This document shows, piece by piece, positions 1-14,459 of a stretch of DNA of 64,000 nt. Position numbers and translations under genes: made by a program. The DNA comes from an uncultured archaeon (GTDB lineage: Archaea > Asgardarchaeota > Lokiarchaeia > Sigyniarchaeales > SOKP01): positions 18,635-82,634 of the forward strand of contig CAYPFJ010000007.1 in the NCBI GenBank assembly GCA_964409945.1, given 5' to 3'. The first letter of the stretch is position 1. The number at the start of each line of letters is the position of its first letter. The notes below the pieces were generated by a model. It saw only the letters and a program-made list of their open reading frames with translations. It had not been told where the DNA came from and ran no database searches.

Positions 1-28
1 AAACTGAATATAAAAACAAAAAATAAAA

Positions 29-943
29 ATGAAACAAGTGATAAAAAAGCAAATGAATTCTAATCCTGAAAAAGAAAAAATTGATGATAGCAAAGTAGAT
101 TATACAATCGATTTTGTAACTACAAGTGCAATAAGTAAAATTGGTTATAAATTTCTTGTTTTATATCTCCCAATTCTATGGCTTTCTGGATATATGACTG
201 TTGCTGTATTTTTTGATGTATCAAGTTATATTCCGTGGTATATAAATATGTTTTTAATCCCTGTGTGGTTATTTGTATTATATTTTATTTTCGTATTTGG
301 AATCGCAATTTTTACAAAAGCGTTTATTCTTATAATAAATATGCTTCATAAGCCAAAAGAGGGAGTCTTCAGAGCCGAAGAAGGGGATCGAGACTATGAG
401 TTTTGGAGATTAAGAGTAGAGTTGAAGAAGATAGTTTTTTGGTTTATGAATAATGGCCCTTTAACATGGATAGTAATGTGGGGCTTCAGATGGATGGGTA
501 TTAAGGTAGACTTTTCAAGCCATGCTCAAGATTCTTGGGTGGATGAAAGATTTATTGAATTCGGGAGAAATGTTACTGTGGGCCAAGGAGCTGTTGTAAT
601 GAGCTCTCAGATCGTCGGAAGATATTTGATAATCAAAAAGATTTTTCTTGGAGATCACACGGTTGTAGGTGGACTATCACTTATATCTCCCGGCACAATT
701 ATGGGTAAGGAATCTGTGATTGGAGCATTTTCTGCGACAATTCCAAACCAAAAAATAGAAACTGGTTGGATTTACTTAGGCCCACATTTTGCTAGGAAAT
801 TAAAACCAAATAAATATGCAGAACAAAGACGAGATGTTATATACGAAGTCCGTGTAGATGATGAAATAAAATATGAAGTTAAACAAGAAGTCAATATAGA
901 TGAAGATAAGAAAAAGCTCTTAAACAATAATATAGAGGATTAA
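29..943 (+). CDS. Integral membrane protein with C-terminal left-handed beta-helix (hexapeptide-repeat) domain; 'type A' module of a TM+LbH paralog family (Pls/PosA C-terminal-domain-like)
   Basis: Hydrophobic segments (YKFLVLYLPILWLSGYMTVAVFF; FLIPVWLFVLYFIFVFGIAIF), then INMLHKPKEGVF..DYEFW and hexapeptide-like GQGAVVMSSQIVG / LGDHTVVGGLSLISPGTIMGKESVIGAFS. Collinear with the C-terminal halves of 9250..11079 and 11632..13512, including the tail EVNIDEDKK. Stop overlaps the next start (TAATG, 941-945). Confidence 0.6.
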   Translation: MKQVIKKQMNSNPEKEKIDDSKVDYTIDFVTTSAISKIGYKFLVLYLPILWLSGYMTVAVFFDVSSYIPWYINMFLIPVWLFVLYFIFVFGIAIFTKAFILIINMLHKPKEGVFRAEEGDRDYEFWRLRVELKKIVFWFMNNGPLTWIVMWGFRWMGIKVDFSSHAQDSWVDERFIEFGRNVTVGQGAVVMSSQIVGRYLIIKKIFLGDHTVVGGLSLISPGTIMGKESVIGAFSATIPNQKIETGWIYLGPHFARKLKPNKYAEQRRDVIYEVRVDDEIKYEVKQEVNIDEDKKKLLNNNIED

Positions 944-1818
944 TGAATATGTCAGTACCTTCGAGTTTAAAAGTAGGACCAAATACAACTCTTATCTTAG
1001 CCAAGAAAAGATATTTAATCTTTTATATCTTTTTAATTTGGATTAGTATTTTTACAATACAGTTTGAATTTTGGTTGTATTGGAATTGGCTGTACGGTCC
1101 TACACTTACTGAACCGAAAGTATTCATTCATTTCTTACTTTTGTTACCTTTTTTAGTTTTTGTTATGTATCTAACCTCAATTTTAGTATCATTATTCTTT
1201 GCCAAAGTGATTCTAGTAATCATTAATCTTATTCATAAACCACGAGAAGGAGTGTTCTTAAGACATCACTCAGATAAAGATTATAGATATTGGAGTCTTA
1301 GAAGTACTATAAAAAAATGGCCATTATGGCTATCACACAAGTTTCCTTTTCCTTTTATGAATAATATATGTTCCAAAATGTTTGGTATAAAAACTAACTA
1401 CTCCAACTCTTTATTTGAAGGATGGGTTGATACAGAATTCATTGAATTTGGAAAAAATATTGTAGTTGGACAGGGGGCTATAGTCCAGTCATCCGTTATT
1501 TTTGGAAATTTATTTATCATAAGAAAAACCATCATTGAAGATAATGTTATGATTGGTACCCAAAGTGTTGTTATGCCTGGAACGTATATGAAAAAAAATT
1601 GTATTTTAGGGGGTCATTCAATGACCACCGTAGGTCAAGAATTAGAAGAGAATTGGATTTATTTAGGGGCTCCAGCAAAAAAGTTTAAAAAAAATGTATT
1701 CTATGAAGATGGATTGGAAGAGATTATTAAAAATCAAGGAATAGGTGAAATTAAAACAGAAGCAAGATTTGAAGGATTATATACTGTGCGTAAGGATAAA
1801 GAGATTAATAGTGATTAA
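943..1818 (+). CDS. Integral membrane protein with C-terminal LbH domain; 'type B' module, paralog of 13509..14459
   Basis: INLIHKPREGVFLRHHSDKDYRYWSLRSTIKKWPLWL..FEGWVDTEFIEFGKNIVVGQGAIVQSSVIFGNLFIIRKTII aligns nearly residue for residue with the 316-aa ORF at 13509. There are two long hydrophobic segments N-terminally. Confidence 0.6.
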   Translation: MNMSVPSSLKVGPNTTLILAKKRYLIFYIFLIWISIFTIQFEFWLYWNWLYGPTLTEPKVFIHFLLLLPFLVFVMYLTSILVSLFFAKVILVIINLIHKPREGVFLRHHSDKDYRYWSLRSTIKKWPLWLSHKFPFPFMNNICSKMFGIKTNYSNSLFEGWVDTEFIEFGKNIVVGQGAIVQSSVIFGNLFIIRKTIIEDNVMIGTQSVVMPGTYMKKNCILGGHSMTTVGQELEENWIYLGAPAKKFKKNVFYEDGLEEIIKNQGIGEIKTEARFEGLYTVRKDKEINSD

Positions 1819-1820
1819 AA

Positions 1821-2621
1821 ATGAAAATTGGATATATCCAAACATCTCCACTATTTGGAGATAAAAAATATAATTTTGAAGAAATTGAAAAACTGATATC
1901 TGGCATAAAAGCAGATTTAATTGTATTACCAGAATTGTTTGCGACAGGTTATACTTTTGTTTCTAAAAAAGAAGCAGTATCATTAGCAGAAAGTCAAGAG
2001 GGTGAAACTGCTCAATTTCTCATAAATATTGCTCAATCGACTGGAGCAATAGTTATTGGCGGATTTATCGAAAAAGAAGGAGAAAAAATATACAATGCTG
2101 CAATAATAGTCTCAAATAAAGGAGTAATCGGCTCATATCGGAAAATACATCTATATTATAAGGAAAAACTTTGGTTTTCTCCAGGAAACAGACCCCTAAA
2201 AGTATATGGTATAGATGGAGTTAAATTAGGTATTATGATTTGTTTTGATTGGATTTTCCCAGAAACAGCGCGGATCCTTGCCCTTTTAAACGCGGATATT
2301 ATTGCTCATCCAGCAAATTTAGTACTTCCCTATTGCCAAAAGGCGATGATTACGAGATGTTTAGAAAATCGGGTATTTGCAATAACTTCAAATAGAATTG
2401 GTGAAGAAAAACGAGGAGATGATCATTTTAAATTTACTGGCAAAAGTCAAATAACTTCTTATAATGGTGAAATTTTATCATCTGCACCTGAGGATAAAAA
2501 TTATGTTGATATAATTGATATTGATATTCAAAAAGCTAGAAATAAAAAACTAAATGAGTTCAATAATTTATTTGAAAACCGACGTGTAGAATTTTATGAT
2601 ACTATTGTAAAAATAAAATAA
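1821..2621 (+). CDS. Carbon-nitrogen hydrolase (nitrilase superfamily)
   Basis: Glu-Lys-Cys triad context is present: LIVLPELFATGY, YRKIHLY, GIMICFDWIFPE. Length is 266 aa. Start lies 2 nt after the stop of 943..1818. Confidence 0.8.
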   Translation: MKIGYIQTSPLFGDKKYNFEEIEKLISGIKADLIVLPELFATGYTFVSKKEAVSLAESQEGETAQFLINIAQSTGAIVIGGFIEKEGEKIYNAAIIVSNKGVIGSYRKIHLYYKEKLWFSPGNRPLKVYGIDGVKLGIMICFDWIFPETARILALLNADIIAHPANLVLPYCQKAMITRCLENRVFAITSNRIGEEKRGDDHFKFTGKSQITSYNGEILSSAPEDKNYVDIIDIDIQKARNKKLNEFNNLFENRRVEFYDTIVKIK

Positions 2622-2638
2622 AAGTTCTTTTTTATTAT

Positions 2639-2905
2639 ATGAAAATTGAATATCCTTGTATATGTCCTTGTATAAATCTACCAATTGTGCATTATAGTTC
2701 TGAACACCTATTTAAGGGTAAATATAAACATGCTGATGAGATTGATATAAATCATTTTAAGAATTTCTTAAAAAAAACTATTAATTTCAATTTTGATCTA
2801 ATGTTAGAAATTAAAAATAAAGAAAAAAGTGCTTTAAGTGCCATAAAAATTCTAATTAATGATATTCGATTTATGCAAATTCTAGCAGAATTTTCAAATA
2901 ATTAG
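2639..2905 (+). pseudogene. uvdE: 5'-truncated remnant of UV damage endonuclease (UvdE), C-terminal ~75 aa only
   Basis: IVHYSSEHLFKGKYKHADEIDINHFKNFLKK..NFDLMLEIKNKEKSAL matches the UvdE C-terminus as I recall it (KVHLSSPK..RSHADYVD..F..L..IDFMIEAKQKDKAL). Full-length UvdE is about 300 aa. Only 17 nt separate it from the upstream gene. Confidence 0.55.
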
Positions 2906-2942
2906 CAATATATTTTTTAAAGTAAAAAAGCTGTGATTATTG

Positions 2943-3413
2943 ATGAGTGTTATTAAATTACCAAAAATGGAAGAAAAGGAAATAAAAGAAGCAATTAATT
3001 CCCATAACTTATGTAGAATAGCGTTTATTGATGATGAATATCCTTATATTTCACCTTTTCAATATATTTCTATTGAGGATATTTTATATTTTCATTTTAC
3101 TGATTATGGTAAAAAGAAAGAAATTCTTTCGAAGAATCCCAATGTATGTATTTCAATAGAAAATTTTGAACCCAATTTAAGTAGTTATTATTTTATTTCA
3201 ATGCAGGGCAAATTAGAATTAGTTGAAGATAATGAACTTAAGAAGGAAGTTATTAATCAAATGGCAAAGTCCGCGAGGAGCAAATATTCAAAGAATTTTT
3301 TATCCGCCCATGGCTTTGAAAAGAACAAAGGATGGGAGATATTTGCCCAAAAAAATCAACTTATTTATAAATTCAAACAAGTAGGACCTCCAATTGGATT
3401 AAAATCTATTTAA
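2943..3413 (+). CDS. Pyridoxamine 5'-phosphate oxidase-like FMN-binding split-barrel family protein
   Basis: 156 aa from ATG 2943. LCRIAFIDDEYPYISPFQYI..LYFHFTDYGKKKEIL..NPNVCISIE..YFISMQGKLELVED is the typical pattern of Pyridox_ox_2-type proteins. Confidence 0.55.
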   Translation: MSVIKLPKMEEKEIKEAINSHNLCRIAFIDDEYPYISPFQYISIEDILYFHFTDYGKKKEILSKNPNVCISIENFEPNLSSYYFISMQGKLELVEDNELKKEVINQMAKSARSKYSKNFLSAHGFEKNKGWEIFAQKNQLIYKFKQVGPPIGLKSI

Positions 3414-3480
3414 AAATATCCAGATGTGTCTATTTAATCTAGTTATAATATATGAATTTATTTTAATAAAAACTAAAATT

Positions 3481-3550
3481 TGATTTGGTAAAGTGTGGCT
3501 AACTTAATAGAATAAAATCTCATTTTTGTTATTTTATTCCCACCAAATCA
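3481..3550 (-). other. Extended RNA hairpin starting immediately after the stop of the redoxin gene (convergent intergenic region)
   Basis: Minus-strand transcript: UGAUUUGGUG pairs with UACCAAAUCA (10 bp including one G-U). The inner stem GAAUAAAAU/AUUUUAUUC (9 bp) has a 12-nt A-rich apical loop AACAAAAAUGAG and a 19-nt 3'-side bulge. Confidence 0.5.
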
Positions 3551-4027
3551 TTATATTTTATTAATTTTTTCAAGAACTTGTAAAATTTCCTCGTTTTCGG
3601 GAATATCATGCATATTTTTTCCATAATATGCGTATCGAATTATCCCTTTCTTGTCAATTATTAATAATCCAGGCATACGCCCAAGTTTTATCCACCTTTT
3701 TTCTTGTTTTAACATTGTAGCTACGTTTTCGGATTCATCATAAAAGACAGCATACTTTCTTGCATATTTTTGTTCCATTTTTTGAGCATTTTTTTCATTA
3801 TCTACTAAGATTGGATACAAAATCCCATCTAATTTTTCAAATTTTTCAATGTCTCTTCTTAATCTAGCAGCATGCCATCGACAGAAAGGTCAATTGATAT
3901 CTCTAAATAGCACAATTATTACATTTTTTTTATTTTCAAAATCTCTGATGTTGATTGTTTCACCTCTAGAGTTTGGCAAACTAAACTCAACGATCTTACT
4001 ACCAACTAAATTGAATTTATCTTTCAA
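3551..4027 (-). CDS. Thioredoxin-fold PRX_like2/AhpC-TSA family redoxin with in-frame TGA (3890..3892) at the first Cys of the CxxC motif; candidate selenoprotein (UxxC) or nonsense pseudogene; TTG start
   Basis: Own translation of the minus strand: (TTG)KDKFNLVGSKIVEFSLPNSRGETINIRDFENKKNVIIVLFRDIN[TGA]PFCRWHAARLRRDIEKFEKLDGILYPILVDNE.., continuing in frame into track ORF 3551..3820 (..GRMPGLLIIDKKGIIRYAYYG..). Family consensus is F.RG.WCP(F/Y)CR. Total length is 158 codons. Confidence 0.55.
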
Positions 4028-4144: not shown

Positions 4145-4551
4145 ATGGCTCTTGATATAAATTGGTTAGCCGTTGCAGTTGTTACATTGATATATTATTT
4201 TGCAATCCATTTTTTTTAGTACTTTCCTTCGGCATTCGGTAATTTATGGCTTAAATTAGTTGGAAAAGAAAGTGAACCTAAATCTAAAATTATTCGAGAT
4301 ACAATGTTACTGATTCCAACTACTAGTTTTATAACTGTTATTTTCATCGCGATAATGATGGAATTAACGGGCATTAACGATATTGTTTCTGCATTGCTAA
4401 TTTAACCCTTTTATGGATTAGATTTGTTGCTACAATCGCTATAAACCAAACTAATTTTAATGATAGAGGATTAAAACTTTTTCTATTGGAATATAGTTTT
4501 TATCTTGTAGGTTTTATAATTGCTAGATTAATATTAGCAGTTTGGGGATAA
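4145..4551 (+). pseudogene. DUF1761-family membrane protein, disrupted (TGG->TAG at 4217..4219 plus at least one frameshift near 4390-4400)
   Basis: MALDINWLAVAVVTLIYYFAIHFF[TAG]YFPSAFGNLWLKLVGKE.. fits the DUF1761 N-terminus (..W-Y....FG..W). The C-terminal part, NDRGLKLFLLEYSFYLVGFIIARLILAVWG*, is in another frame. The span is 407 nt, not a multiple of 3. Confidence 0.5.
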
Positions 4552-4674
4552 ATTAGTAATTAATTTATAATTTATTAATCAACAAATTTTTTTTTTTTCG
4601 TTTAATGTATTTAAATAATAAATTTATAATTTTTAGACATACAAGTTAAAAACTAATTTATAATATTTTAAACT

Positions 4675-5514
4675 ATGAACTCTATAGAAAAATCAGAAGA
4701 AGGTTGGTTAATACCAAAATCTCCAATTGCATTTGAGTACCTAAAAAGATTCAATCGAAATATGGGTATTTTACATTTAGTACAAGGATTGCTAATGGTT
4801 TTATTTGGATTTTTACCTCAACTTGCTTTTTCCAGAGACATTTACACATTTTACCTAAAGTTTGAACTTGTTGGGCCAGATTTTGTTATTTCACCTAATC
4901 CTGCAGTACTTTTCGTCTTTAGCGCTTTAGGTGCATTTGTTGGATCCTTTTTATTGATGTCTGCTATTGCCCATCTATTAATTGCTTACCCACTTAATAA
5001 AAGTTACGTCAAGAATTTAAAAAGAGGAATAAATAAGGTACGTTGGTTTGAGTACGCTTTTTCAAGTTCAGTGATGATTTTCTTAATCGCTATTTTCTTT
5101 GGAGTGTGGGATTTCTGGTCATTGTTTATGATTTTTGTCTTAAATGCTCTGATGAATATGTTTGGTTTAATGATGGAATCATACAATGTATATACGAGAG
5201 AAAAAAATGAGAAGGTTAAATGGGGTCCATTTTATCTAGGTGTTATTGCCGGAGCCGTTCCTTGGATTGTTATTACTGCGTACTTTATAAGTACTGAAAC
5301 GATTGGAGGAGAAGTACCACTATTTGTCTACCTAATATACGGAATTGAATTGTTCTTCTTTAATACATTCGCTATCAACATGATATTGCAATATAAAGGA
5401 GTAGGAAAGTGGAAAGATTATCTATACGGTGAAAAAGTGTATCAACTTTTGAGTCTTGTATCTAAAACATTTCTAGCATGGTTAGTATTTGCAGGAGTAT
5501 TTAGTCCAGCTTAA
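4675..5514 (+). CDS. Heliorhodopsin
   Basis: Blocks are collinear with heliorhodopsin 48C12 as I recall it: LKRFNRNMGILHLVQ (LQNFNRIAGVFHLLQ), RWFEYAFSSSVMIFLIA (RWVEYSLSSSVMIVLIA, counterion Glu), GAVPWIV, LQYKGVGKWKDYLYGEKVYQLLSLVSKTFLAW (LQYKGKGKWSNYLRGERAYIVLSLVAKSALAW, retinal Lys). 279 aa with a 7-TM-like profile. Confidence 0.85.
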   Translation: MNSIEKSEEGWLIPKSPIAFEYLKRFNRNMGILHLVQGLLMVLFGFLPQLAFSRDIYTFYLKFELVGPDFVISPNPAVLFVFSALGAFVGSFLLMSAIAHLLIAYPLNKSYVKNLKRGINKVRWFEYAFSSSVMIFLIAIFFGVWDFWSLFMIFVLNALMNMFGLMMESYNVYTREKNEKVKWGPFYLGVIAGAVPWIVITAYFISTETIGGEVPLFVYLIYGIELFFFNTFAINMILQYKGVGKWKDYLYGEKVYQLLSLVSKTFLAWLVFAGVFSPA

Positions 5515-5558
5515 TTATCCAAAATAATATAGAAAAAAGATTATTTTTTTTTTTTTAT

Positions 5559-7199
5559 TTATGCTTCTACTATATACAACGGCCATTTTTTTAAAATTCC
5601 TTTAGGATTTTTACCATTTCGAACTTTTTCTAAGATTTCTGAACGCGTTGCTAAAAAATCTACTGGATTCTCATTTATTAATTCGATTTTAATTTCATTA
5701 TTTAAGAGAGCTTCTTTAAAGTTATCATTTGCACTGCAATCAAGTAATATTTTACTATAATTCTTCAAATTATAACAGTTTTTCTTACCATTTGAATAAA
5801 GAAACAACGTCCATGGTTTATCTGAAATCGAATTTTTTCTAACTAATAAAAGTGAATCAAGATCTAAACCACATTTCTCTTTTAAACAATTTAATAGAAG
5901 TCGTGGACTTTGAACTTCAAAATTAGAATAAGTAAAATAATCACCAGCAAATACCTTATAATGCGATTGTATAACGATTTCTTTTGATATATTTATTGGA
6001 TATTTTAATAGAAAACTTGAACGTAAAATTTTTCCATCTATTTGAGGGAGACCTTCCTGATTTTTAATAGAGATAACATCACCCAAATCAATATTAATTA
6101 AAACTCCTGAGTTATTAAGCCGAGAAACATAAAGCTTACCACATTTATTTTTAGTTCTTGAAACTGCTTCTTTCTTTCCTTTATGTTCTATTACGGGAAG
6201 AGTTAATGGAAAAATATACATTTTATTTAAACGTGAAATTTCATAATCTCCCTTATTTATACTTGCAGCAAACGGACCAATTTCAGAAGCTACATAAAGG
6301 TTTGTAAATTTTTCTTTCCCCACCTCCCATTTCATAAAATTACGAATTAATTCCCAATCTGATTTTGATAATGAACTTATACTAAAAACCAAAGTTGCTT
6401 TAGAAATTTTATTAGATAATTCTTTTTGAATTTCTTTTGAAGCATTAACTAACCCATTATTTTCAATTTTTAATAGAAGGTCTTCAAATTTTGGATTTTG
6501 GTTTTTGTGTATTAATTCAAGTGATCTTTTTATCCCCTCTTGGAGTCTAATAATATCTGCCCATCCCAAAATTGTTATCGCTGGTGCAGAAATGACTGAG
6601 ATATTATCCATCGTTAAGATTTTAGATATAATCTCTAGATTTCTTGAATTTTTATATTCATAAAACAGATATGATTTTGGTTTAATAACGGATAACATGA
6701 TTCGTTGAGAAAATTCTGAAGAGTAAAGTGAAATATATTTCTTATCTCCATATGATCTAATCCCATCGAATTTTAACCTAGAAGGAACAAAAATTATAGC
6801 AGATGAATTTGAATCTAATCCACTCGATTCAAAGATTGCTTGCATGCCAGGAGCCCATTGCCTCTTTACAATATCGTTTGCCATATGGAACCATTTTAAC
6901 ATCGACAATCTGCTATTTGTAGTCCCCGAAGTATGGCAAAAAATTAATGGATCAGATACATTATCGTTATTTAGATAATCATCTAAATCAATTGAGAAAG
7001 TTCTTGAATCAGTTGTTTCAGATTTTATTCTAATAAAAAGATCTTCAACAGACAATAACCCCGAAAGTTTTAATGATAATTCTTCATATTCCTTTTTAGA
7101 ACTTATTTTAAGCCAATGTTTCCAATTTATTCTTTCTATATTTGAAAAAGATTTATTGACGTATTTTTGGACTTTAATATCAAAATCAAATGACTCCAA
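5559..7199 (-). CDS. Hypothetical protein with ANL/GH3/LuxE-like TSGTT motif; possible divergent adenylate-forming enzyme
   Basis: 546 aa. LIFCHTSGTTNSRLSMLKW resembles the A3 P-loop (T/S-S-G-T-T). YVASEIGPFA, DLGDVIS and a C-terminal KGILKKWP are loosely A5/A8/A10-like. No confident family assignment. Confidence 0.35.
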   Translation of the reverse strand: MESFDFDIKVQKYVNKSFSNIERINWKHWLKISSKKEYEELSLKLSGLLSVEDLFIRIKSETTDSRTFSIDLDDYLNNDNVSDPLIFCHTSGTTNSRLSMLKWFHMANDIVKRQWAPGMQAIFESSGLDSNSSAIIFVPSRLKFDGIRSYGDKKYISLYSSEFSQRIMLSVIKPKSYLFYEYKNSRNLEIISKILTMDNISVISAPAITILGWADIIRLQEGIKRSLELIHKNQNPKFEDLLLKIENNGLVNASKEIQKELSNKISKATLVFSISSLSKSDWELIRNFMKWEVGKEKFTNLYVASEIGPFAASINKGDYEISRLNKMYIFPLTLPVIEHKGKKEAVSRTKNKCGKLYVSRLNNSGVLINIDLGDVISIKNQEGLPQIDGKILRSSFLLKYPINISKEIVIQSHYKVFAGDYFTYSNFEVQSPRLLLNCLKEKCGLDLDSLLLVRKNSISDKPWTLFLYSNGKKNCYNLKNYSKILLDCSANDNFKEALLNNEIKIELINENPVDFLATRSEILEKVRNGKNPKGILKKWPLYIVEA

Positions 7200-7330
7200 A
7201 ATGAGGTTCCACTATTTTAATTTTATGTTACTTAATTAAATACTTAAAAATATGAAATTTTAAAAATCTAATAGAATAAATAAGGAAAAAAAGAATTATA
7301 TTATTTTACGAAAAAATTTTATATTTTAAA

Positions 7331-7885
7331 TTAAATATATGCTAAAATACCATATAACCCTGTTTCAGAATCTTGGAATATAGGCAAATGTGGAGGCAAA
7401 TAGGTAAAGATTATTAAAGAGAATCCCAAACTAATAAGAATTATCCATGAAGTAATAGTCAACCATCGTGGTAGTTCTTTTAAAGTCATAATCTTATAAC
7501 TTACAAATTGACCTATAATCACACCAATAAAGAAACTCATAATGTCAATAATAAGAAGTTCTGTTCCAAGAATAGCTGTATATGAATAAAAAACAATTAG
7601 AATCGTACCAATACTTATTATTGCCGCAAAACTTTTTCCAATAATAATATTTTTTGCGTTTTCTTTTATAAATTTATATTCGATTAATGAAAATATTATA
7701 AGCGGCCAATAGGGGAGTTTCAGATGTTCCCACACACTTTCATTAACTGCTGTAATTGCTCCAATAGGCGGCCAAGAAAAAAGCCATTCAAATAAGAAGT
7801 GGAATAAAGTTCCAACGATAATGATAAATATCATACCGAAAATTTCCCATCGTAATAATTTGTTCTTCATTTTTTCACCTTTCAC
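7331..7885 (-). CDS. Uncharacterised multi-pass membrane protein (VNESxWEHxKL motif)
   Basis: 184 aa with about 5 hydrophobic helices. Alternative start MKNKLL at 7870. Confidence 0.55.
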   Translation of the reverse strand: MKGEKMKNKLLRWEIFGMIFIIIVGTLFHFLFEWLFSWPPIGAITAVNESVWEHLKLPYWPLIIFSLIEYKFIKENAKNIIIGKSFAAIISIGTILIVFYSYTAILGTELLIIDIMSFFIGVIIGQFVSYKIMTLKELPRWLTITSWIILISLGFSLIIFTYLPPHLPIFQDSETGLYGILAYI

Positions 7886-9249: not shown

Positions 9250-11079
9250 ATGGATACTACAGAATTACCATCGATTGAAAGTGTTTCAGAGAATAAAACC
9301 ATTAAAGAAGAAATTAAAAATCAATATTTTTGGTATCTTTTTGTCCTTTTCACAATATTTTTGGCTTCATTAGTTATTCCCGCAATTGTGTTTCTAATGT
9401 ATGTATTTTTCTTTTTTTTACCTAATTTTTTAGATACTACTAGTTTTTTAGCCCTTTTTACAGAATTTAAACCTATGATAGCATTGATCTCTATGCCTTT
9501 AGTCCTCATTGGTTGTTATCTTATTCGACTATTCTTTATAGGTTTAATTACACGTGGTTTTTGGTATCTAACTGAAAAAAGATCCCCTAGTAAAGATGGT
9601 ATTATACCAAGAAATTTTCCTAGTAAAACATTAAATTATTATCAAATTAGAGGTTTCATGATTAAATATGGAAAGAATGCCTTTATGAAAGGTTCTTTTC
9701 CTTGGCTTAGCAACTGGTATTTTAATTTTATAGGCGCAAGCAAAATTGGAAAGGGTACTACCTTAGAGGAATCTGTCAGTAGTGACAAATTTATTGAAGT
9801 AGGGCGAAATTGTTATATAGGAGTTAACTCTGCGTTAGCTAGCCATGTTATTGAGGGAATTTTTGGAAATATCTCCTATTTTAAAGTAAAAACAGGAAAT
9901 AATTTTACCGCAGCAGCTAGTAATATTTTAGGACCCGGTTCTGAAGCGTATGATAATTCTTATTTACTTCCTTTAGCCTCAACTACCAAACATAGCGTAA
10001 TTAAAGGAAATAATTATTACTGGGGCATGCCATTAAGAAAAATTTTCAGAAAGAAGATTATGAAATTTTTAAGAATATCGCCAAAGGATTTAGAGAAAGG
10101 TGAAAATATTGGAGGTTATAAAGATAAGAAATTGTTTAAAAAATTGAGAGCTCAGAAACGTTCGAAGCAAACTGAAGCTGAACCCAAGATAGTATTAGAT
10201 AACGGAGACTTAAAGAAGGAAAATATTAATCTAAATGATATTGATAAAAAAGAATTAAGAATTGATTTTACCACTAGTAGTGCGATTTCAAGGATAAATA
10301 TAAAATTTTTAGTAGTTTATATCCCAATTTTTTGGTTGTCTGGCATGACAGATACCGTGATCTTTTACTCTTTCACTCATTACGTGCAAAATTGGGTATT
10401 AATGGCATTTTTTTTACCAGCAATATTAATTATTATGTGGTTTATATTTATTTTAGGATGTTTTTTCTTTAGCAAACTCTTCTTGATACTAATTAATTTA
10501 ATACATAAGCCAAAAGAAGGGATATTCAAAGCTGAAAAAGGAGATGCTGATTTTGAATTTTGGTGTTTACGAACTGAATTAAAAAAAGTAGCTTTTTGGT
10601 TTATTAGAAATTGGCCCCTTCCTTGGATGGATATTTTGGCTTTTAAATGGTTCGGCACCAAAATGAGTTTATCAAGCACGTTATGGGACTCATGGTGCGA
10701 TGGAGAATTTATTAAATTTGGACGTAGGGTAATAATAGGGCAAGGTGCTACTGTTATGTCCTCTATGGTCGTCGGAAAATATTTATTAATTAAAAAAGTC
10801 ATTCTAGATGATTATGTTGTTATTGGAGGTCAGAGCATTGTAGCTCCAGGAACGATCGTTGGTAAGGATTCAGTAGTCGGTGCTCTTAGTACAACTAACT
10901 ATGATCAGATCCTTGAGCCGGGATGGATTTATTTTGGAATTCCTGTCATTCAATTAAAGAAAAATAAATATTCCGAAGAACGTCGAGATATACTTATGAA
11001 ACGGGATGTTGATGAAGAAAAGAAGTATGAAATTAAACATGAAGTCAATATTGATGAAGATAAAAAAGAATTTGCATAA
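9250..11079 (+). CDS. Double-module membrane protein: two tandem (2 hydrophobic segments + LbH) units, types N+A; paralog of 11632..13512
   Basis: N unit: SPSKDGIIPRNFPSKTLNYYQIRGFMIKYGKN..WYFNFIGASKIGKGTTLEESV..IGVNSALASHVIEG. A unit: INLIHKPKEGIFKAE..FEFW..GQGATVMSSMVVG..VIGGQSIVAPGTIVGKDSVVGALS, with tail EVNIDEDKK. 609 aa. Confidence 0.6.
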   Translation: MDTTELPSIESVSENKTIKEEIKNQYFWYLFVLFTIFLASLVIPAIVFLMYVFFFFLPNFLDTTSFLALFTEFKPMIALISMPLVLIGCYLIRLFFIGLITRGFWYLTEKRSPSKDGIIPRNFPSKTLNYYQIRGFMIKYGKNAFMKGSFPWLSNWYFNFIGASKIGKGTTLEESVSSDKFIEVGRNCYIGVNSALASHVIEGIFGNISYFKVKTGNNFTAAASNILGPGSEAYDNSYLLPLASTTKHSVIKGNNYYWGMPLRKIFRKKIMKFLRISPKDLEKGENIGGYKDKKLFKKLRAQKRSKQTEAEPKIVLDNGDLKKENINLNDIDKKELRIDFTTSSAISRINIKFLVVYIPIFWLSGMTDTVIFYSFTHYVQNWVLMAFFLPAILIIMWFIFILGCFFFSKLFLILINLIHKPKEGIFKAEKGDADFEFWCLRTELKKVAFWFIRNWPLPWMDILAFKWFGTKMSLSSTLWDSWCDGEFIKFGRRVIIGQGATVMSSMVVGKYLLIKKVILDDYVVIGGQSIVAPGTIVGKDSVVGALSTTNYDQILEPGWIYFGIPVIQLKKNKYSEERRDILMKRDVDEEKKYEIKHEVNIDEDKKEFA

Positions 11080-11631: not shown

Positions 11632-13512
11632 ATGAGTGAAGAAGGAAAAGAATCTGAGCTTTCTGATTCCGATGATTCTAATAACAAAGTTATAAAAGAA
11701 GAAATCAGTCTTCAATTTCATTTATATATTATTATTTTTGCTATTATTTATTATATTTCATGGATTATACCGGGATTTGTATTTTGGTTATATTTTTTCT
11801 TCCCTTTTCGAATATTCTTTTTAGAAAATCTCGATTTTTTATCTCTTTTTACTAATTTAAGTTCTCTAATAACGTTGTTAATTATGCCTTTAGTTATTAT
11901 TGGCTGTTATTTAATCCATTTAATGCTGATTGGATTAACAACACGATTTATTTGGGGAATTACTGAAAAAATTTCACCATCAAAATCAGGTATCATTCCA
12001 AGAAATATTAGAAGTAGGGTAGCGAATTATTACCATATTAGAAGTTTTATGATAAAATACGGAAAAAATACATTTATAAAAGGTATGTTTCCATGGTTAT
12101 CTAATTGGTTTTTTAATTTTGTTGGGTCAAACAAAATTGGTAAAGGAACAACCTTGGAGGAGTCTGTAGGGAATGATAAATTTATTAACATCGGGGAGAA
12201 CTGTTATATTGGTGTTAATTCTACATTAGCGAGTCATCTAATTCAAGGAATCTTCGGAAATATCTCATATTTCGAAATTGTAGTTGGTAATAATGTAACC
12301 TCTTCTGCTTTTGGTAATATTGGTGCAGGAAGTGAAATTTATGAAGATGCATATCTATTACCTCTAGCATCTACACCAAAACATAGTATACTAAAAGGTA
12401 ATAACTCATATTATTTTGGAATTCCAATGAGGAAAATCTTTAGAAAGAAACTAATGAATTATCTAAATGTAACACCAAAAGATTTGGAGATGAATGAGAA
12501 TATTGAAGGGTACTCAGATAAAAAATTATTAAAAGAAATAAAAGAGAAGAAGAGTTATCATGAAAAAGATGATGAAAATATTGATAAAGAGCAGATTCTG
12601 GGTGATCTACAAGAAGTTAAAATAGCATTGGATAAATTAACCGCAGAAGATTTAGCGATTGATTTCACAACAAGCTCTGCAATAAGTAGGGTAAATGTAA
12701 AGTTTTTAATTGTATATATACCAATTTTTTGGCTTTCGGGCTTAATCGTAACTATAATTTGGTACTGGTATTCTAAATCTCAAGTTTCATCGAACTTCCA
12801 ATGGTCATTTTTCTTTTTCTTCCCAATTGTTTTGTTCGGATTATTATATATCTTTAATGCGGGATGTCTTCTTTTTAGTAAGCTGTTTTTAATTTTAATA
12901 AATTTAATTCATAAACCTAAAGAGGGCGTGTTTAAAGCAGAGATTGGAGATACTAATTACGAATTTTGGATGATGAGAACTGAACTAAAGAAAATTGCTT
13001 TATGGTTATTTCGAAATTCACCATTTCCGTGGACCGATGCTTTAGCTTTTAAACAGTTAGGGATTAATATGGATTTTTCAAGCCATTTAGCTGATACTTG
13101 GTGTGATTCTGAATTTATTAAATTTGGGCGTAAAGTATTGGTTGGTCAGGGAGCTACAATTATGTCCAGTATGGTAATAGGTAAATATTTACTAATTAAA
13201 AAAGTATTTTTTGATGACTATGTAATGGTTGGAGGTCATACGACGATTGCTCCGGGAACGATAATAGAGAAAGAATCGGTTATCGGTGCGATAAGTTCAA
13301 CAACCTATGATCAAGTTCTAAAACCTGGTTGGATTTATTTTGGGATACCTGCGAGGGAATTAAAAGAAAATAAATATGCTGAAGAGAGAACAGATATAAT
13401 AATTAAACGCCAAGTAGCTGAAGCCAAAAAATTTGAAACGACACTTGAAGTTAATATTGATGAAGATAAGAAAGAATTAATTAAAATAAAAAAAAAGAGG
13501 AAAGAAAAATGA
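11632..13512 (+). CDS. Double-module membrane protein (types N+A), paralog of 9250..11079
   Basis: 626 aa with the same block order as 9250..11079: GIIPRNIRSRVANYYHIRSFMIKYGKN..FNFVGSNKIGKGTTLEESVG; INLIHKPKEGVFKAE..YEFW..GQGATIMSSMVIG; EVNIDEDKK. ATGA overlap with the next gene. Confidence 0.6.
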   Translation: MSEEGKESELSDSDDSNNKVIKEEISLQFHLYIIIFAIIYYISWIIPGFVFWLYFFFPFRIFFLENLDFLSLFTNLSSLITLLIMPLVIIGCYLIHLMLIGLTTRFIWGITEKISPSKSGIIPRNIRSRVANYYHIRSFMIKYGKNTFIKGMFPWLSNWFFNFVGSNKIGKGTTLEESVGNDKFINIGENCYIGVNSTLASHLIQGIFGNISYFEIVVGNNVTSSAFGNIGAGSEIYEDAYLLPLASTPKHSILKGNNSYYFGIPMRKIFRKKLMNYLNVTPKDLEMNENIEGYSDKKLLKEIKEKKSYHEKDDENIDKEQILGDLQEVKIALDKLTAEDLAIDFTTSSAISRVNVKFLIVYIPIFWLSGLIVTIIWYWYSKSQVSSNFQWSFFFFFPIVLFGLLYIFNAGCLLFSKLFLILINLIHKPKEGVFKAEIGDTNYEFWMMRTELKKIALWLFRNSPFPWTDALAFKQLGINMDFSSHLADTWCDSEFIKFGRKVLVGQGATIMSSMVIGKYLLIKKVFFDDYVMVGGHTTIAPGTIIEKESVIGAISSTTYDQVLKPGWIYFGIPARELKENKYAEERTDIIIKRQVAEAKKFETTLEVNIDEDKKELIKIKKKRKEK

Positions 13513-14459
13513 GTGTACCAAATACAATGCGTGTTGGTCCTTTCACCTCAAATGTGCTCGTGCGGAAACGTTATTTATTTTTTTACATCTTGCTTATTTG
13601 GGCAAGTGTAATTCCAATCCTCTTAGAATTTTGGGTTTATTGGCGTTTTTTATGGCACCCGATAAGACCAGTTCATTTCTATACATTTCTTCCACTTTTA
13701 GCTTTCTTAATGTATATTACTTTAGTTTTTTCTTCAATACTTTTTGCTAAGATCTTATTAATTATAATTAATGCATTCCATAAGCCTCGAGAAGGTGTTT
13801 TCTTACGAATTCCCGCAGATCGAGATTATCGAAATTGGAGTCTTCGGAATACTATCAAAAGGTGGCCAACTTGGCTTGCCCACAGATTTCCTTTCCCTGG
13901 CTTTTTAGATAATGTATGTTTTAAAATGTTTGGAGTGAAAACCAAAATTTCGAATTCCTTATTTGAGGGTTGGGTGGATACTGAGTTCATCGATTTTGGT
14001 AGAGATGTAGTTATTGGACAAGGAGCAATTGTTCAATCTGCTGTAATTATAGGGAATCTCTTAATAATTAGGAAAACAATTATCGGAAATGATGTTAGAA
14101 TAGGTTCACATGCCATAATTATGCCAGGTACCCATATCGAACATAATTGTATTTTAGCTGCTAATTCTGTAACTACGGTAGGACAGGTTTTAGAAAGTGG
14201 ATACGTTTATGCTGGTATTCCTGCAAAAAAGTTTAAAAGGAACTATTTTTTTGAGGATGGGTTGGAGGATAAGATAGGTCATGTTGAGGATGTTGAGGCG
14301 TTAAGAGAAAAATATGAACAGATTTATACTAAAAGATATGATAAATTGAAACTTAAAGAGCGTCGTGAGTTAAAGAGAGAAAAGAAAGAAGAGGAAAAGA
14401 AGAGATTTGACTATGCGGCTGATGAATGGGAAGAATTTGACGATGGTTTCAATATTTAA
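13509..14459 (+). CDS. Single-module membrane LbH protein, type B (paralog of 943..1818), with highly charged C-terminal tail
   Basis: INAFHKPREGVFLRIPADRDYRNWSLRNTIKRWPTWL..FEGWVDTEFIDFGRDVVIGQGAIVQSAVIIGNLLIIRKTII. 4-nt overlap with the upstream gene. Confidence 0.6.
   Translation: MSVPNTMRVGPFTSNVLVRKRYLFFYILLIWASVIPILLEFWVYWRFLWHPIRPVHFYTFLPLLAFLMYITLVFSSILFAKILLIIINAFHKPREGVFLRIPADRDYRNWSLRNTIKRWPTWLAHRFPFPGFLDNVCFKMFGVKTKISNSLFEGWVDTEFIDFGRDVVIGQGAIVQSAVIIGNLLIIRKTIIGNDVRIGSHAIIMPGTHIEHNCILAANSVTTVGQVLESGYVYAGIPAKKFKRNYFFEDGLEDKIGHVEDVEALREKYEQIYTKRYDKLKLKERRELKREKKEEEKKRFDYAADEWEEFDDGFNI

Follow-up and report, generated by a model that had tools for sequence, protein, structure and literature searches.

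What kind of enzyme is encoded by the closely spaced open reading frames (ORFs) at the left edge of the archaeal DNA analysed here, and does the last of them belong with the others? The DNA is a stretch of 64,000 nucleotides from an uncultured member of the Lokiarchaeia (contig CAYPFJ010000007.1, positions 18,635 to 82,634; hereafter the window), and its positions 29 to 2621 hold three ORFs, two of them for proteins with membrane-anchored beta-helix modules, named A2 and B2 after their module types, and the third for a C-N hydrolase of the nitrilase superfamily. A first-pass annotation had described them as a second, split copy of A and B modules found further right in the window, translationally coupled to a hydrolase of the same pathway, and the three forward-strand ORFs with their junctions were indeed present as it described them. 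The reading towards which we lean is that this region would form the right-hand portion of a unit of four same-strand genes, N2-A2-B2-hydrolase, where a trio resembling the polymerisation domain of Pls and PosA is followed by a hydrolase that stands there by inherited synteny. Module homology, module anatomy and a 1:1:1 gene order with short overlaps can be regarded as established.

Modules homologous to the membrane domain of Pls and PosA

N2 (the N-module gene, described below), A2 and B2 each encode two hydrophobic segments followed by a left-handed beta-helix. A motif behind the membrane segments, HKP[KR]EG[VI]F in A and B modules (HKPKEGVF at residues 107-114 of A2, HKPREGVF in B2) and SPSK[SD]GII in N modules, leads into hexapeptide repeats, and A and B modules are about 33-37% identical to each other. 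With profile PF00132 (cut-off 27), B2 scored 32.6 bits, its paralog B1 42.1 bits and the fused N+A paralog NA_1 29.2 bits, with A2 (23.7) and N2 (17.3) below the cut-off. TIGR02353, the profile of the Pls/PosA terminal domain, matched all of the modules, being the top NCBIfam match of A2, B2 and NA_1 and the second for B1 and for NA_2, another fused paralog, and its alignment covered the transmembrane region together with the beta-helix in B2 and NA_1. The products of this family are epsilon-poly-L-lysine, delta-poly-L-ornithine, poly-Dab and poly-Dap. The first-pass annotation had not recognised the relationship.

The homology was clearest when an A/B-module profile was compared with 1.84 billion representative proteins. 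It matched P0252, a protein of 1713 amino acids, with an E-value of 1.5e-19 and in three stretches, which were all three of the C-terminal modules of that protein; P0252 is a bona fide Pls/PosA member, scoring 471 bits with TIGR02353 (cut-off 423) and carrying an amino-acid adenylation domain. The hidden Markov model of the B module aligned its positions 24-257 with residues 904-1134 of P0252, the C1 module, at E 1e-16, covering both the transmembrane hairpin and the beta-helix. Alignment with hmmalign of a Pls C1 module, three-module proteins from Elusimicrobiota, a single-module protein from Thermoplasmata and the modules of the window gave the common motif P-x-[KRE]-[ES]-G-[VI]-[FY] after the second transmembrane helix, and further W-x-L, [ML]-x-G-x-K, D-x-x-[FL]-[IV]-x-[IF]-G and a C-terminal W/Y-x-G-x-P-A, the likeness to Pls/PosA thus running from the exit of that helix to the C-terminal G-x-PA.

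The proteins from Elusimicrobiota (free-standing, 650-680 amino acids, with three modules) and Thermoplasmata (one module) carry the same module and no adenylation-thiolation (A-T) domains; TIGR02353 was their top NCBIfam match, under the cut-off, and they matched the A/B profile at E 1e-20 to 1e-36. They differ from the Asgard system, an operon of three genes, in consisting of one chain or one module, and are distant and uncharacterised. Another protein of the representative library, P0204 (960 amino acids), has a short-chain dehydrogenase domain fused to three transmembrane/beta-helix modules, which suggests that partners of the membrane domain other than non-ribosomal peptide synthetase units exist elsewhere.

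Pls consists of an adenylation domain, a thiolation domain and three tandem acetyltransferase-like domains, C1-C3, with six transmembrane helices (PMC8117764). In the AlphaFold model of PosA, six bent membrane helices stand below three five-turn left-handed beta-helices in a roughly threefold arrangement, each transmembrane pair being joined to its beta-helix through two helices and a strand, and in 2023 there was no experimental structure of the domain (PMC10522769). The Pls layout of six transmembrane helices in three pairs with soluble modules is found at the operon level in N2, A2 and B2 taken together, where, as in Pls and PosA, each of the three modules has a transmembrane pair and a soluble part of about 180 residues with a left-handed beta-helix. 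The AlphaFold2 model of B2, with a mean predicted local distance difference test score (pLDDT) of 74.6, has helices at 20-49 and 56-95 that form the hairpin, a strand at 101-104, helices at 110-130 and 136-144, and beta-helix strands from 165 to 248, an order of elements that agrees with the published description of PosA. For P0121, a natural single chain with the modules in the order B-N-A, the model repeated the module pattern three times in one confident body (pLDDT 86.8, predicted template modelling score, pTM, 0.88).

When compared with known folds using Foldseek, B2 had its best full-length matches among maltose and galactoside O-acetyltransferases (target-normalised template modelling score, TMt, 0.57-0.61, probability 1.0), with gamma-carbonic-anhydrase-like subunits at slightly lower E-values over short alignments, and P0121 matched in the PDB only soluble hexapeptide enzymes that covered one module (TMt up to 0.62, query-normalised score, TMq, at most 0.16). 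A solved structure of Pls type was also sought, and both the sequence and the fold searches of the PDB returned soluble hexapeptide enzymes only. Such soluble acyltransferases (maltose/galactoside O-acetyltransferase, AntD and the gamma-carbonic-anhydrase-like proteins) share the helical lead-in and the left-handed beta-helix with the Asgard modules, but they are homotrimers of one soluble subunit, whereas the Asgard trio comprises three different membrane-anchored subunits with the motif behind the membrane segments.

The Asgard modules in turn differ from Pls and PosA in being distributed over three genes, or in paralogs over two plus one genes or a single chain, in their archaeal host with several paralogous sets per genome, in their family scores, and in having no fused or dependably adjacent adenylation or thiolation domain. 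Pfam and NCBIfam profiles found no AMP-binding or PP-binding domain in N2, A2, B2, NA_1, NA_2 or B1. Taken together, we consider it well supported that N2, A2 and B2 encode the three subunits of an enzyme that is embedded in the membrane, homologous to the polymerisation domain of Pls/PosA and free of an A-T unit. The three products may assemble as one pseudo-threefold heterotrimer; at the membrane this complex would move an acyl or aminoacyl group onto an acceptor with an amine or hydroxyl function, possibly in repeated rounds and together with export. With neither an adenylation nor a carrier domain fused to the modules or dependably next to them, any donor would have to be supplied from elsewhere, and iterative amide formation with a donor provided in trans is, judged by sequence, the reading that would lie closest to the homology.

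An N-module gene upstream of A2 and the age of the split

The first-pass annotation had suggested that a gene for an N-type module might end just upstream of position 29, outside the window. Such a gene was found on contig L001, which reaches 10 kb left of the window: N2 is an ORF of 311 amino acids (L001 9100..10035) that ends at window nucleotides 61-63 in frame 1 and shares 51% identity with the N halves of NA_1 and NA_2, the fused paralogs. The absence of an upstream N module and the lack of a conserved linkage of the hydrolase had been named beforehand as outcomes that would count against the proposal; we instead found the N module, and, as described below, a linkage conserved across genomes. 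The 400 bases across the left edge of the window were identical in four aligned assemblies (the window and three contigs, L001 included), and an identical A protein occurred on at least 12 metagenome contigs. The identity of A2 with the C-terminal halves of NA_1 and NA_2 is 48-51%, and that of B2 with B1 is 57%. The G+C content of the window is 30.7%, at which stop codons are frequent, so that ORFs as long as these do not arise by chance.

The starts of A2 and B2 probably lie somewhat downstream of those given by the longest ORFs (Table 1). Read from stop to stop, the A frame opens at MNSN... in the closest relatives, corresponding to ATG 53 of the window, and in the genome L007 of the same species there is no methionine before this point; the true start of A2 is therefore probably ATG 53, which would overlap the N2 stop by 11 nucleotides. 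The B proteins begin with MSVP... in nine of ten aligned sequences and with MSTP... in the tenth, residues M1, S2 and P4 being invariant, and this start corresponds to ATG 949. At the A2/B2 junction the stop codon TAA (941-943) shares a base with the ATG at 943-945, giving TAATG. This overlap, noted in the first-pass annotation, is real as sequence, but probably not the functional junction, because the ortholog alignment places the start of B2 at ATG 949; with A-to-B gaps of 2-6 nucleotides in most species, A2 and B2 are still tightly packed. The GAGGAT that precedes ATG 949 presumably pairs with the archaeal anti-Shine-Dalgarno sequence. At the next junction the B2 stop TAA (1816-1818) is followed by two adenines and the ATG of the hydrolase.

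Table 1. Features at the left edge of the window and the paralogous modules further right (window positions)
Feature	Position	Strand	Remarks
N2 gene, 3' end	1..63	+	last 20 codons and TAA 61-63; remainder left of the window edge; frame 1 open from nucleotide 1
A2 gene (A module)	29..943	+	longest ORF, 304 amino acids; probable start ATG 53
Shine-Dalgarno-like GAGGAT	935..940	+	8 nucleotides 5' of ATG 949; read from sequence
B2 gene (B module)	943..1818	+	longest ORF, 291 amino acids; conserved start ATG 949 (MSVP...)
Shine-Dalgarno-like GTGAT	1811..1815	+	5 nucleotides 5' of hydrolase ATG; tGATtaaaaATG or a close variant here in many orthologous loci
C-N hydrolase, PH0642/PaNit type	1821..2621	+	266 amino acids; PF00795; soluble; E38/K108/C141/E148
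T6 run	2628..2633	+	6 nucleotides past hydrolase stop; read from sequence
NA_1, fused N+A two-module paralog	9250..11079	+	no adjacent B gene; profile and sequence comparison
NA_2, fused N+A two-module paralog	11632..13512	+	profile and sequence comparison
B1 paralog	13509..14459	+	overlaps NA_2 by ATGA; minus-strand AlaX-like gene next

The distribution of this arrangement was followed in a scan of species-representative genomes that gave 77 loci in 65 assemblies, annotated by phmmer with the proteins of the window as queries. All homologs of B belonged to the Promethearchaeota (the Lokiarchaeia branch of the Asgard archaea). Among the paralogs B2 was the best conserved, with orthologs 65-98% identical over more than 100 clusters; a protein so conserved across the class is not a degenerate second copy, and the description of the locus as a secondary one was thus not borne out. 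At all 49 N2-A2 junctions examined in the Promethearchaeota assemblies, N2 and A2 were distinct ORFs and the split N-A-B order was kept, with overlaps mostly of 4-8 nucleotides (8 in 21 and 4 in 10 of the junctions). Split trios of the B1 type were also present in deeper lineages.

Since the two other N-A copies in the window are fusions and the N2/A2 junction lies inside a homopolymer-rich stretch, it could be argued that the separate genes are an artefact, either a fusion that was frameshifted or pseudogenised, or a misassembly of the A-rich nucleotides 1-60. That is exceedingly improbable. The junction is identical base for base in four independent assemblies, the split is kept in every one of the 49 loci with overlaps of the typical size, split B1-type trios exist in deeper lineages, and at the split loci the B orthologs keep the conservation given above while the N2 and A2 ORFs score 340-620 bits against the window proteins. 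The four identical assemblies and the 49 split loci effectively rule the artefact out, and the separation of N and A is an old, maintained and ancestral-looking state, not a frameshift.

The hydrolase, its linkage to B2 and the competing readings

The hydrolase matched PF00795 with 153.9 bits (cut-off 23.2), and the intact Glu-Lys-Cys context noted in the first-pass annotation was confirmed by alignment with PH0642 and PaNit, where E38, K108, C141 and a second glutamate, E148, fall in the motifs PELF, YRKIHL, MICFDW and FPE. It is 51% identical over its full length to Pyrococcus horikoshii PH0642 (PDB 1J31, E 4.6e-79) and 48% identical to the Pyrococcus abyssi nitrilase PaNit (PDB 3IVZ, E 3.9e-78), likewise over the full length. 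These proteins resemble the Asgard enzyme in length, in end-to-end alignment and in the retained triad and second glutamate; the difference is that the Asgard enzyme sits directly behind a transmembrane/beta-helix trio in one Lokiarchaeial clade. Against NF040852, the archaeal nitrilase equivalog, it scored 297 bits with a cut-off of 500, which makes it a relative and not an equivalog. With more than 7,000 relatives at E of 1e-20 or below, the hydrolase belongs, by sequence comparison, to a broad archaeal family rather than to a subfamily private to these operons, so that the notion of a dedicated subfamily did not hold. An N-acyltransferase of Lnt type, drawn on as an analogy in the first-pass annotation, was considered and rejected: the protein has no hydrophobic segment and thus no membrane span, and its TIGR00546 score of 55.3 bits is below the cut-off of 132.9.

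With regard to linkage, the hydrolase was the next same-strand gene after B2 in 36 of the 47 species-level assemblies with an informative B2-type locus, and it followed B1 at none of 35 informative B1-type loci. The 11 assemblies without it are deeper lineages, where B2 precedes UvdE, PNPOx, DUF1295 or ADH instead. In a neighbour-joining tree of the B proteins the linked loci made up one large clade and the locus L049, and the linkage therefore amounts to one or two evolutionary events, not 36. In two loci (L077, L081) the hydrolase stands before ADH-NA_1; in Lokiarchaeum GC14_75 (L085/L086 4868..5756) an opposite-strand HepT/MNT toxin-antitoxin pair lies between B and the hydrolase; and in JAGXNR (L087 5044..5861) such a pair lies directly upstream of a hydrolase whose neighbours are the reductase region on one side and ADH on the other, the N2-A2-B2 trio being missing from this place. 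UvdE, an unrelated protein, abuts or overlaps the 3' end of the hydrolase gene in relatives, and since it is packed equally tightly, tight spacing alone is weak evidence of a shared function. In the lineage of the window this gene is truncated, an 88-residue ORF (2639..2905, forward strand) being the C-terminal remnant of a protein of about 300 amino acids (PF03851, E 1e-66) that is full-length at the same position in relatives (L039 10883-11791, L015 11468-12427).

The spacer between B2 and the hydrolase measures 46-58 nucleotides in most species and ends in tGATtaaaaATG; it is 2 nucleotides in the window and in L007, L010, L040 and L047, and 11-26 nucleotides in six others. A Shine-Dalgarno-like TGAT is conserved 5 nucleotides before the hydrolase ATG. 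Relatives have a conserved ATTAAAAT about 17-27 nucleotides before this ATG and often a run of T right behind the B2 stop. As a TATA box ATTAAAAT was rejected, being too near the ATG (about 17-20 nucleotides) with the TGAT in between, a geometry that fits poorly. Comparison of positions 1760..1825 with the relatives revealed that the window has lost the whole spacer, the ATTAAAAT region included. In the window, L007 and L010 the sequence ...GAT runs directly into TAAaaATG, which looks as if about 51 nucleotides had been deleted between two short repeats. Gaps of 2 and of 11-26 nucleotides leave little room for a promoter of its own, so that a common transcript of the hydrolase with B2 is a plausible and, for the short-gap genomes, the simplest reading. 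In the window the two genes share a strand and their spacer leaves no room for an independent promoter, a feature specific to this lineage, and the T6 run behind the hydrolase might possibly serve as an archaeal oligo-T terminator that closes the unit. A scan of positions 1..3600 for sigma-70 promoters and hairpin terminators gave 22 promoter-like sites where 21.3 were expected, and no terminators, which is uninformative for an archaeon.

On balance, the rather more credible account of the hydrolase seems to us to be synteny by inheritance, which in this lineage turned into an operon fusion. Its gene would have stood downstream of B2 since the ancestor of one Lokiarchaeial clade, and the deletion of about 51 nucleotides would then have brought its ATG to 2 nucleotides past the B2 stop; co-transcription with B2 in this lineage is plausible, and a role in the pathway is possible, not required. 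The alternative that the hydrolase is a dedicated partner of N-A-B, which trims, recycles or detoxifies an amide-linked product or makes an amine or acid monomer, we regard as unlikely on the whole, despite a fair number of observations in its favour: the same-strand adjacency in 36 of 47 assemblies, spacers of at most 26 nucleotides with no room for an archaeal promoter in about 11 species of several sub-clades, the TGAT kept before the ATG, the 2-nucleotide junction in the window, and the fact that displaced copies still adjoin other N-A paralogs (L077, L081, L085). Set against these are the generic PH0642/PaNit type of the enzyme, at 48-51% identity to the proteins of Thermococcales, its absence after B2 in the deeper lineages and after every B1, the one or two events behind the linkage, the HepT/MNT insertion in GC14_75 and the hydrolase without a trio in JAGXNR, and the equally tight packing of UvdE in the same string of genes.

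It is also conceivable, if again the less probable choice, that the trio is an ordinary acyl-CoA-dependent hexapeptide acetyl- or acyltransferase, anchored in the membrane and acting together with DUF1295 on a lipid, a surface polymer or a polyprenyl-linked glycan, in which case the hydrolase would be irrelevant. We treat such acyl-CoA-dependent modification of lipid or glycan as a serious rival, because DUF1295 lies beside most B2 loci and is the neighbour that even the deepest lineages have kept, the folds nearest to a whole module are those of the CoA-dependent maltose and galactoside O-acetyltransferases (TMt 0.5-0.6), no A-T didomain is nearby and the AMP-binding genes in the neighbourhood belong to the fatty-acyl-CoA-ligase type. 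What speaks for a Pls-like trio instead is that the combination of transmembrane hairpin, motif behind it and beta-helix is specifically that of Pls/PosA, with TIGR02353 as top or near-top NCBIfam match, that the motifs shared with Pls modules extend beyond the beta-helix, and that among characterised proteins we found the module only in polymerases of the Pls/PosA type.

The four-gene unit with a Pls-like trio and an inherited hydrolase remains the reading we prefer, with several points weighing against it. The TIGR02353 scores of the modules, 24.6-54.2 bits, are far below the cut-off of 423.1. A one-to-one assignment of N, A and B to C1, C2 and C3 of Pls was tried and had to be abandoned, as every Pls module had its top score with the A or the B profile and no module singled out N; a common three-module ancestor is thus not shown by the sequences, and the chemistry could differ. 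The packing of N2, A2 and B2 as a heterotrimer is suggested by the pTM of a predicted model and by analogy, and the support as a whole comes from sequence and predicted structures. As for the hydrolase, its adjacency has been retained in 36 species while the genes downstream were reshuffled, and the short spacers fall in at least three sub-clades of the B tree; retained adjacency and repeated shortening of the spacer could reflect selection for co-expression, which would favour a functional link. There is also a precedent, as pls forms an operon with the product-degrading peptidase gene pldII in Streptomyces and Corynebacterium (PMC8117764), where, too, a membrane enzyme of polymerase type is followed by a hydrolase of amide bonds; PldII, which acts on epsilon-poly-lysine, is a peptidase and not a member of the nitrilase superfamily, and the analogy would be functional only.

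Gene surroundings, further copies and meaning

The genes recur in a common order among relatives, namely DUF1295, N2, A2, B2, the hydrolase where present, UvdE, a PNPOx-like gene, redoxin (reverse strand), heliorhodopsin and a 546-residue ORF (reverse strand), followed by ADH, NA_1, a CxxCxxCC gene (reverse strand), NA_2, B1 and AlaX (reverse strand). The region thus encodes three N, three A and two B modules, and the hydrolase behind B2 is the only C-N hydrolase of the window; that the locus at 11632..14459 lacks one, as the first-pass annotation had noted, agreed with our analysis, the AlaX-like gene coming next on the opposite strand. NA_1 lacks an adjacent B gene, the next gene being the reverse-strand CxxCxxCC gene. 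Some genomes have two tandem copies of NA_1 (L027, L058, L062, L073, L076), and entire N-A-B trios are tandemly duplicated in others (L009, L013, L043, L045, L048, L053, L056, L066); where the tandem trios are of the B2 type and a hydrolase is present (L009, L013, L043), it stands behind only one of the trios. A further paralog system of Promethearchaeota consists of single B-N-A chains of about 800 amino acids (P0121, P0410 and P0411, 797-805 amino acids; locus L089 5216..7609), and two-module B-N paralogs of about 525-540 amino acids also occur (P0414 and similar), the three modules thus being seen in every fusion state, 1+1+1, 2+1 and 3. The genomic neighbours of the single-chain protein P0121 gave no functional clue.

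Left of N2, contig L001 encodes the DUF1295 membrane protein, an intein-containing class II ribonucleotide reductase (4460..7714, reverse strand), an RHH/PIN pair and a split gene of acyl-CoA-ligase type. DUF1295 (PF06966, steroid-reductase/ICMT-like) is the gene directly before N2 in most B2 loci and, in the deepest lineages (L051, L053, L057, L080, L066), the gene directly after B. The ligase gene (L001 1824..3491, reverse strand; fatty-acid/3-methylthiopropionyl-CoA ligase type) is split into 456 and 93 amino acids and forms one ORF in relatives such as L012. The nearest AMP-binding genes were considered as the missing adenylation unit and rejected, as they are of fatty-acyl-CoA-ligase type and lie on the other strand with unrelated genes between. 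The 546-residue ORF (5559..7199, reverse strand), syntenic in most loci, contains an HTSGTT motif reminiscent of adenylate-forming enzymes and had no Pfam, NCBIfam or PDB sequence match; it may be a candidate for the activating enzyme that the trio lacks. The heliorhodopsin gene (4675..5514, forward strand; PF18761, E 3.7e-86) and the class II ribonucleotide reductase gene flank the cluster and are both syntenic in many relatives.

In the source annotations the module proteins are called hypothetical, 'DapH/DapD/GlmU-related' or 'acyltransferase', and a literature search on TIGR02353, the Pls structure and Asgard hexapeptide membrane proteins found no paper describing them in Asgard archaea and nothing relevant except the Pls and PosA papers. 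To our knowledge, in every case known so far the membrane domain of Pls/PosA is the fused end of a bacterial or fungal synthetase for antimicrobial cationic poly(amino acids).

Taken alone, the coupling of the hydrolase is of modest interest, and it carries the caution that adjacency should be weighed by independent evolutionary events and not by counts of genomes, tight spacing also joining unrelated genes. A bolder proposition, which we put forward as speculative and doubtful, is that Lokiarchaeia carry several free-standing multi-subunit polymerases of Pls type, N/A/B heterotrimers supplied with their donor in trans, that make an amide-linked (poly)cationic or lipid-anchored surface product, which in one clade an amidase trims or recycles. 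If true, no machinery of poly(amino acid)-synthetase type would have been known from Archaea before, nor any that works without an adenylation-carrier unit fused to it. The split trio shows that the module can exist without an A-T unit, and with this naturally divided, highly conserved version, structure and mechanism could be studied on subunits that can be taken apart. It is also a sign that the archaea most closely related to eukaryotes have a membrane enzyme system, present in several copies, that awaits characterisation.

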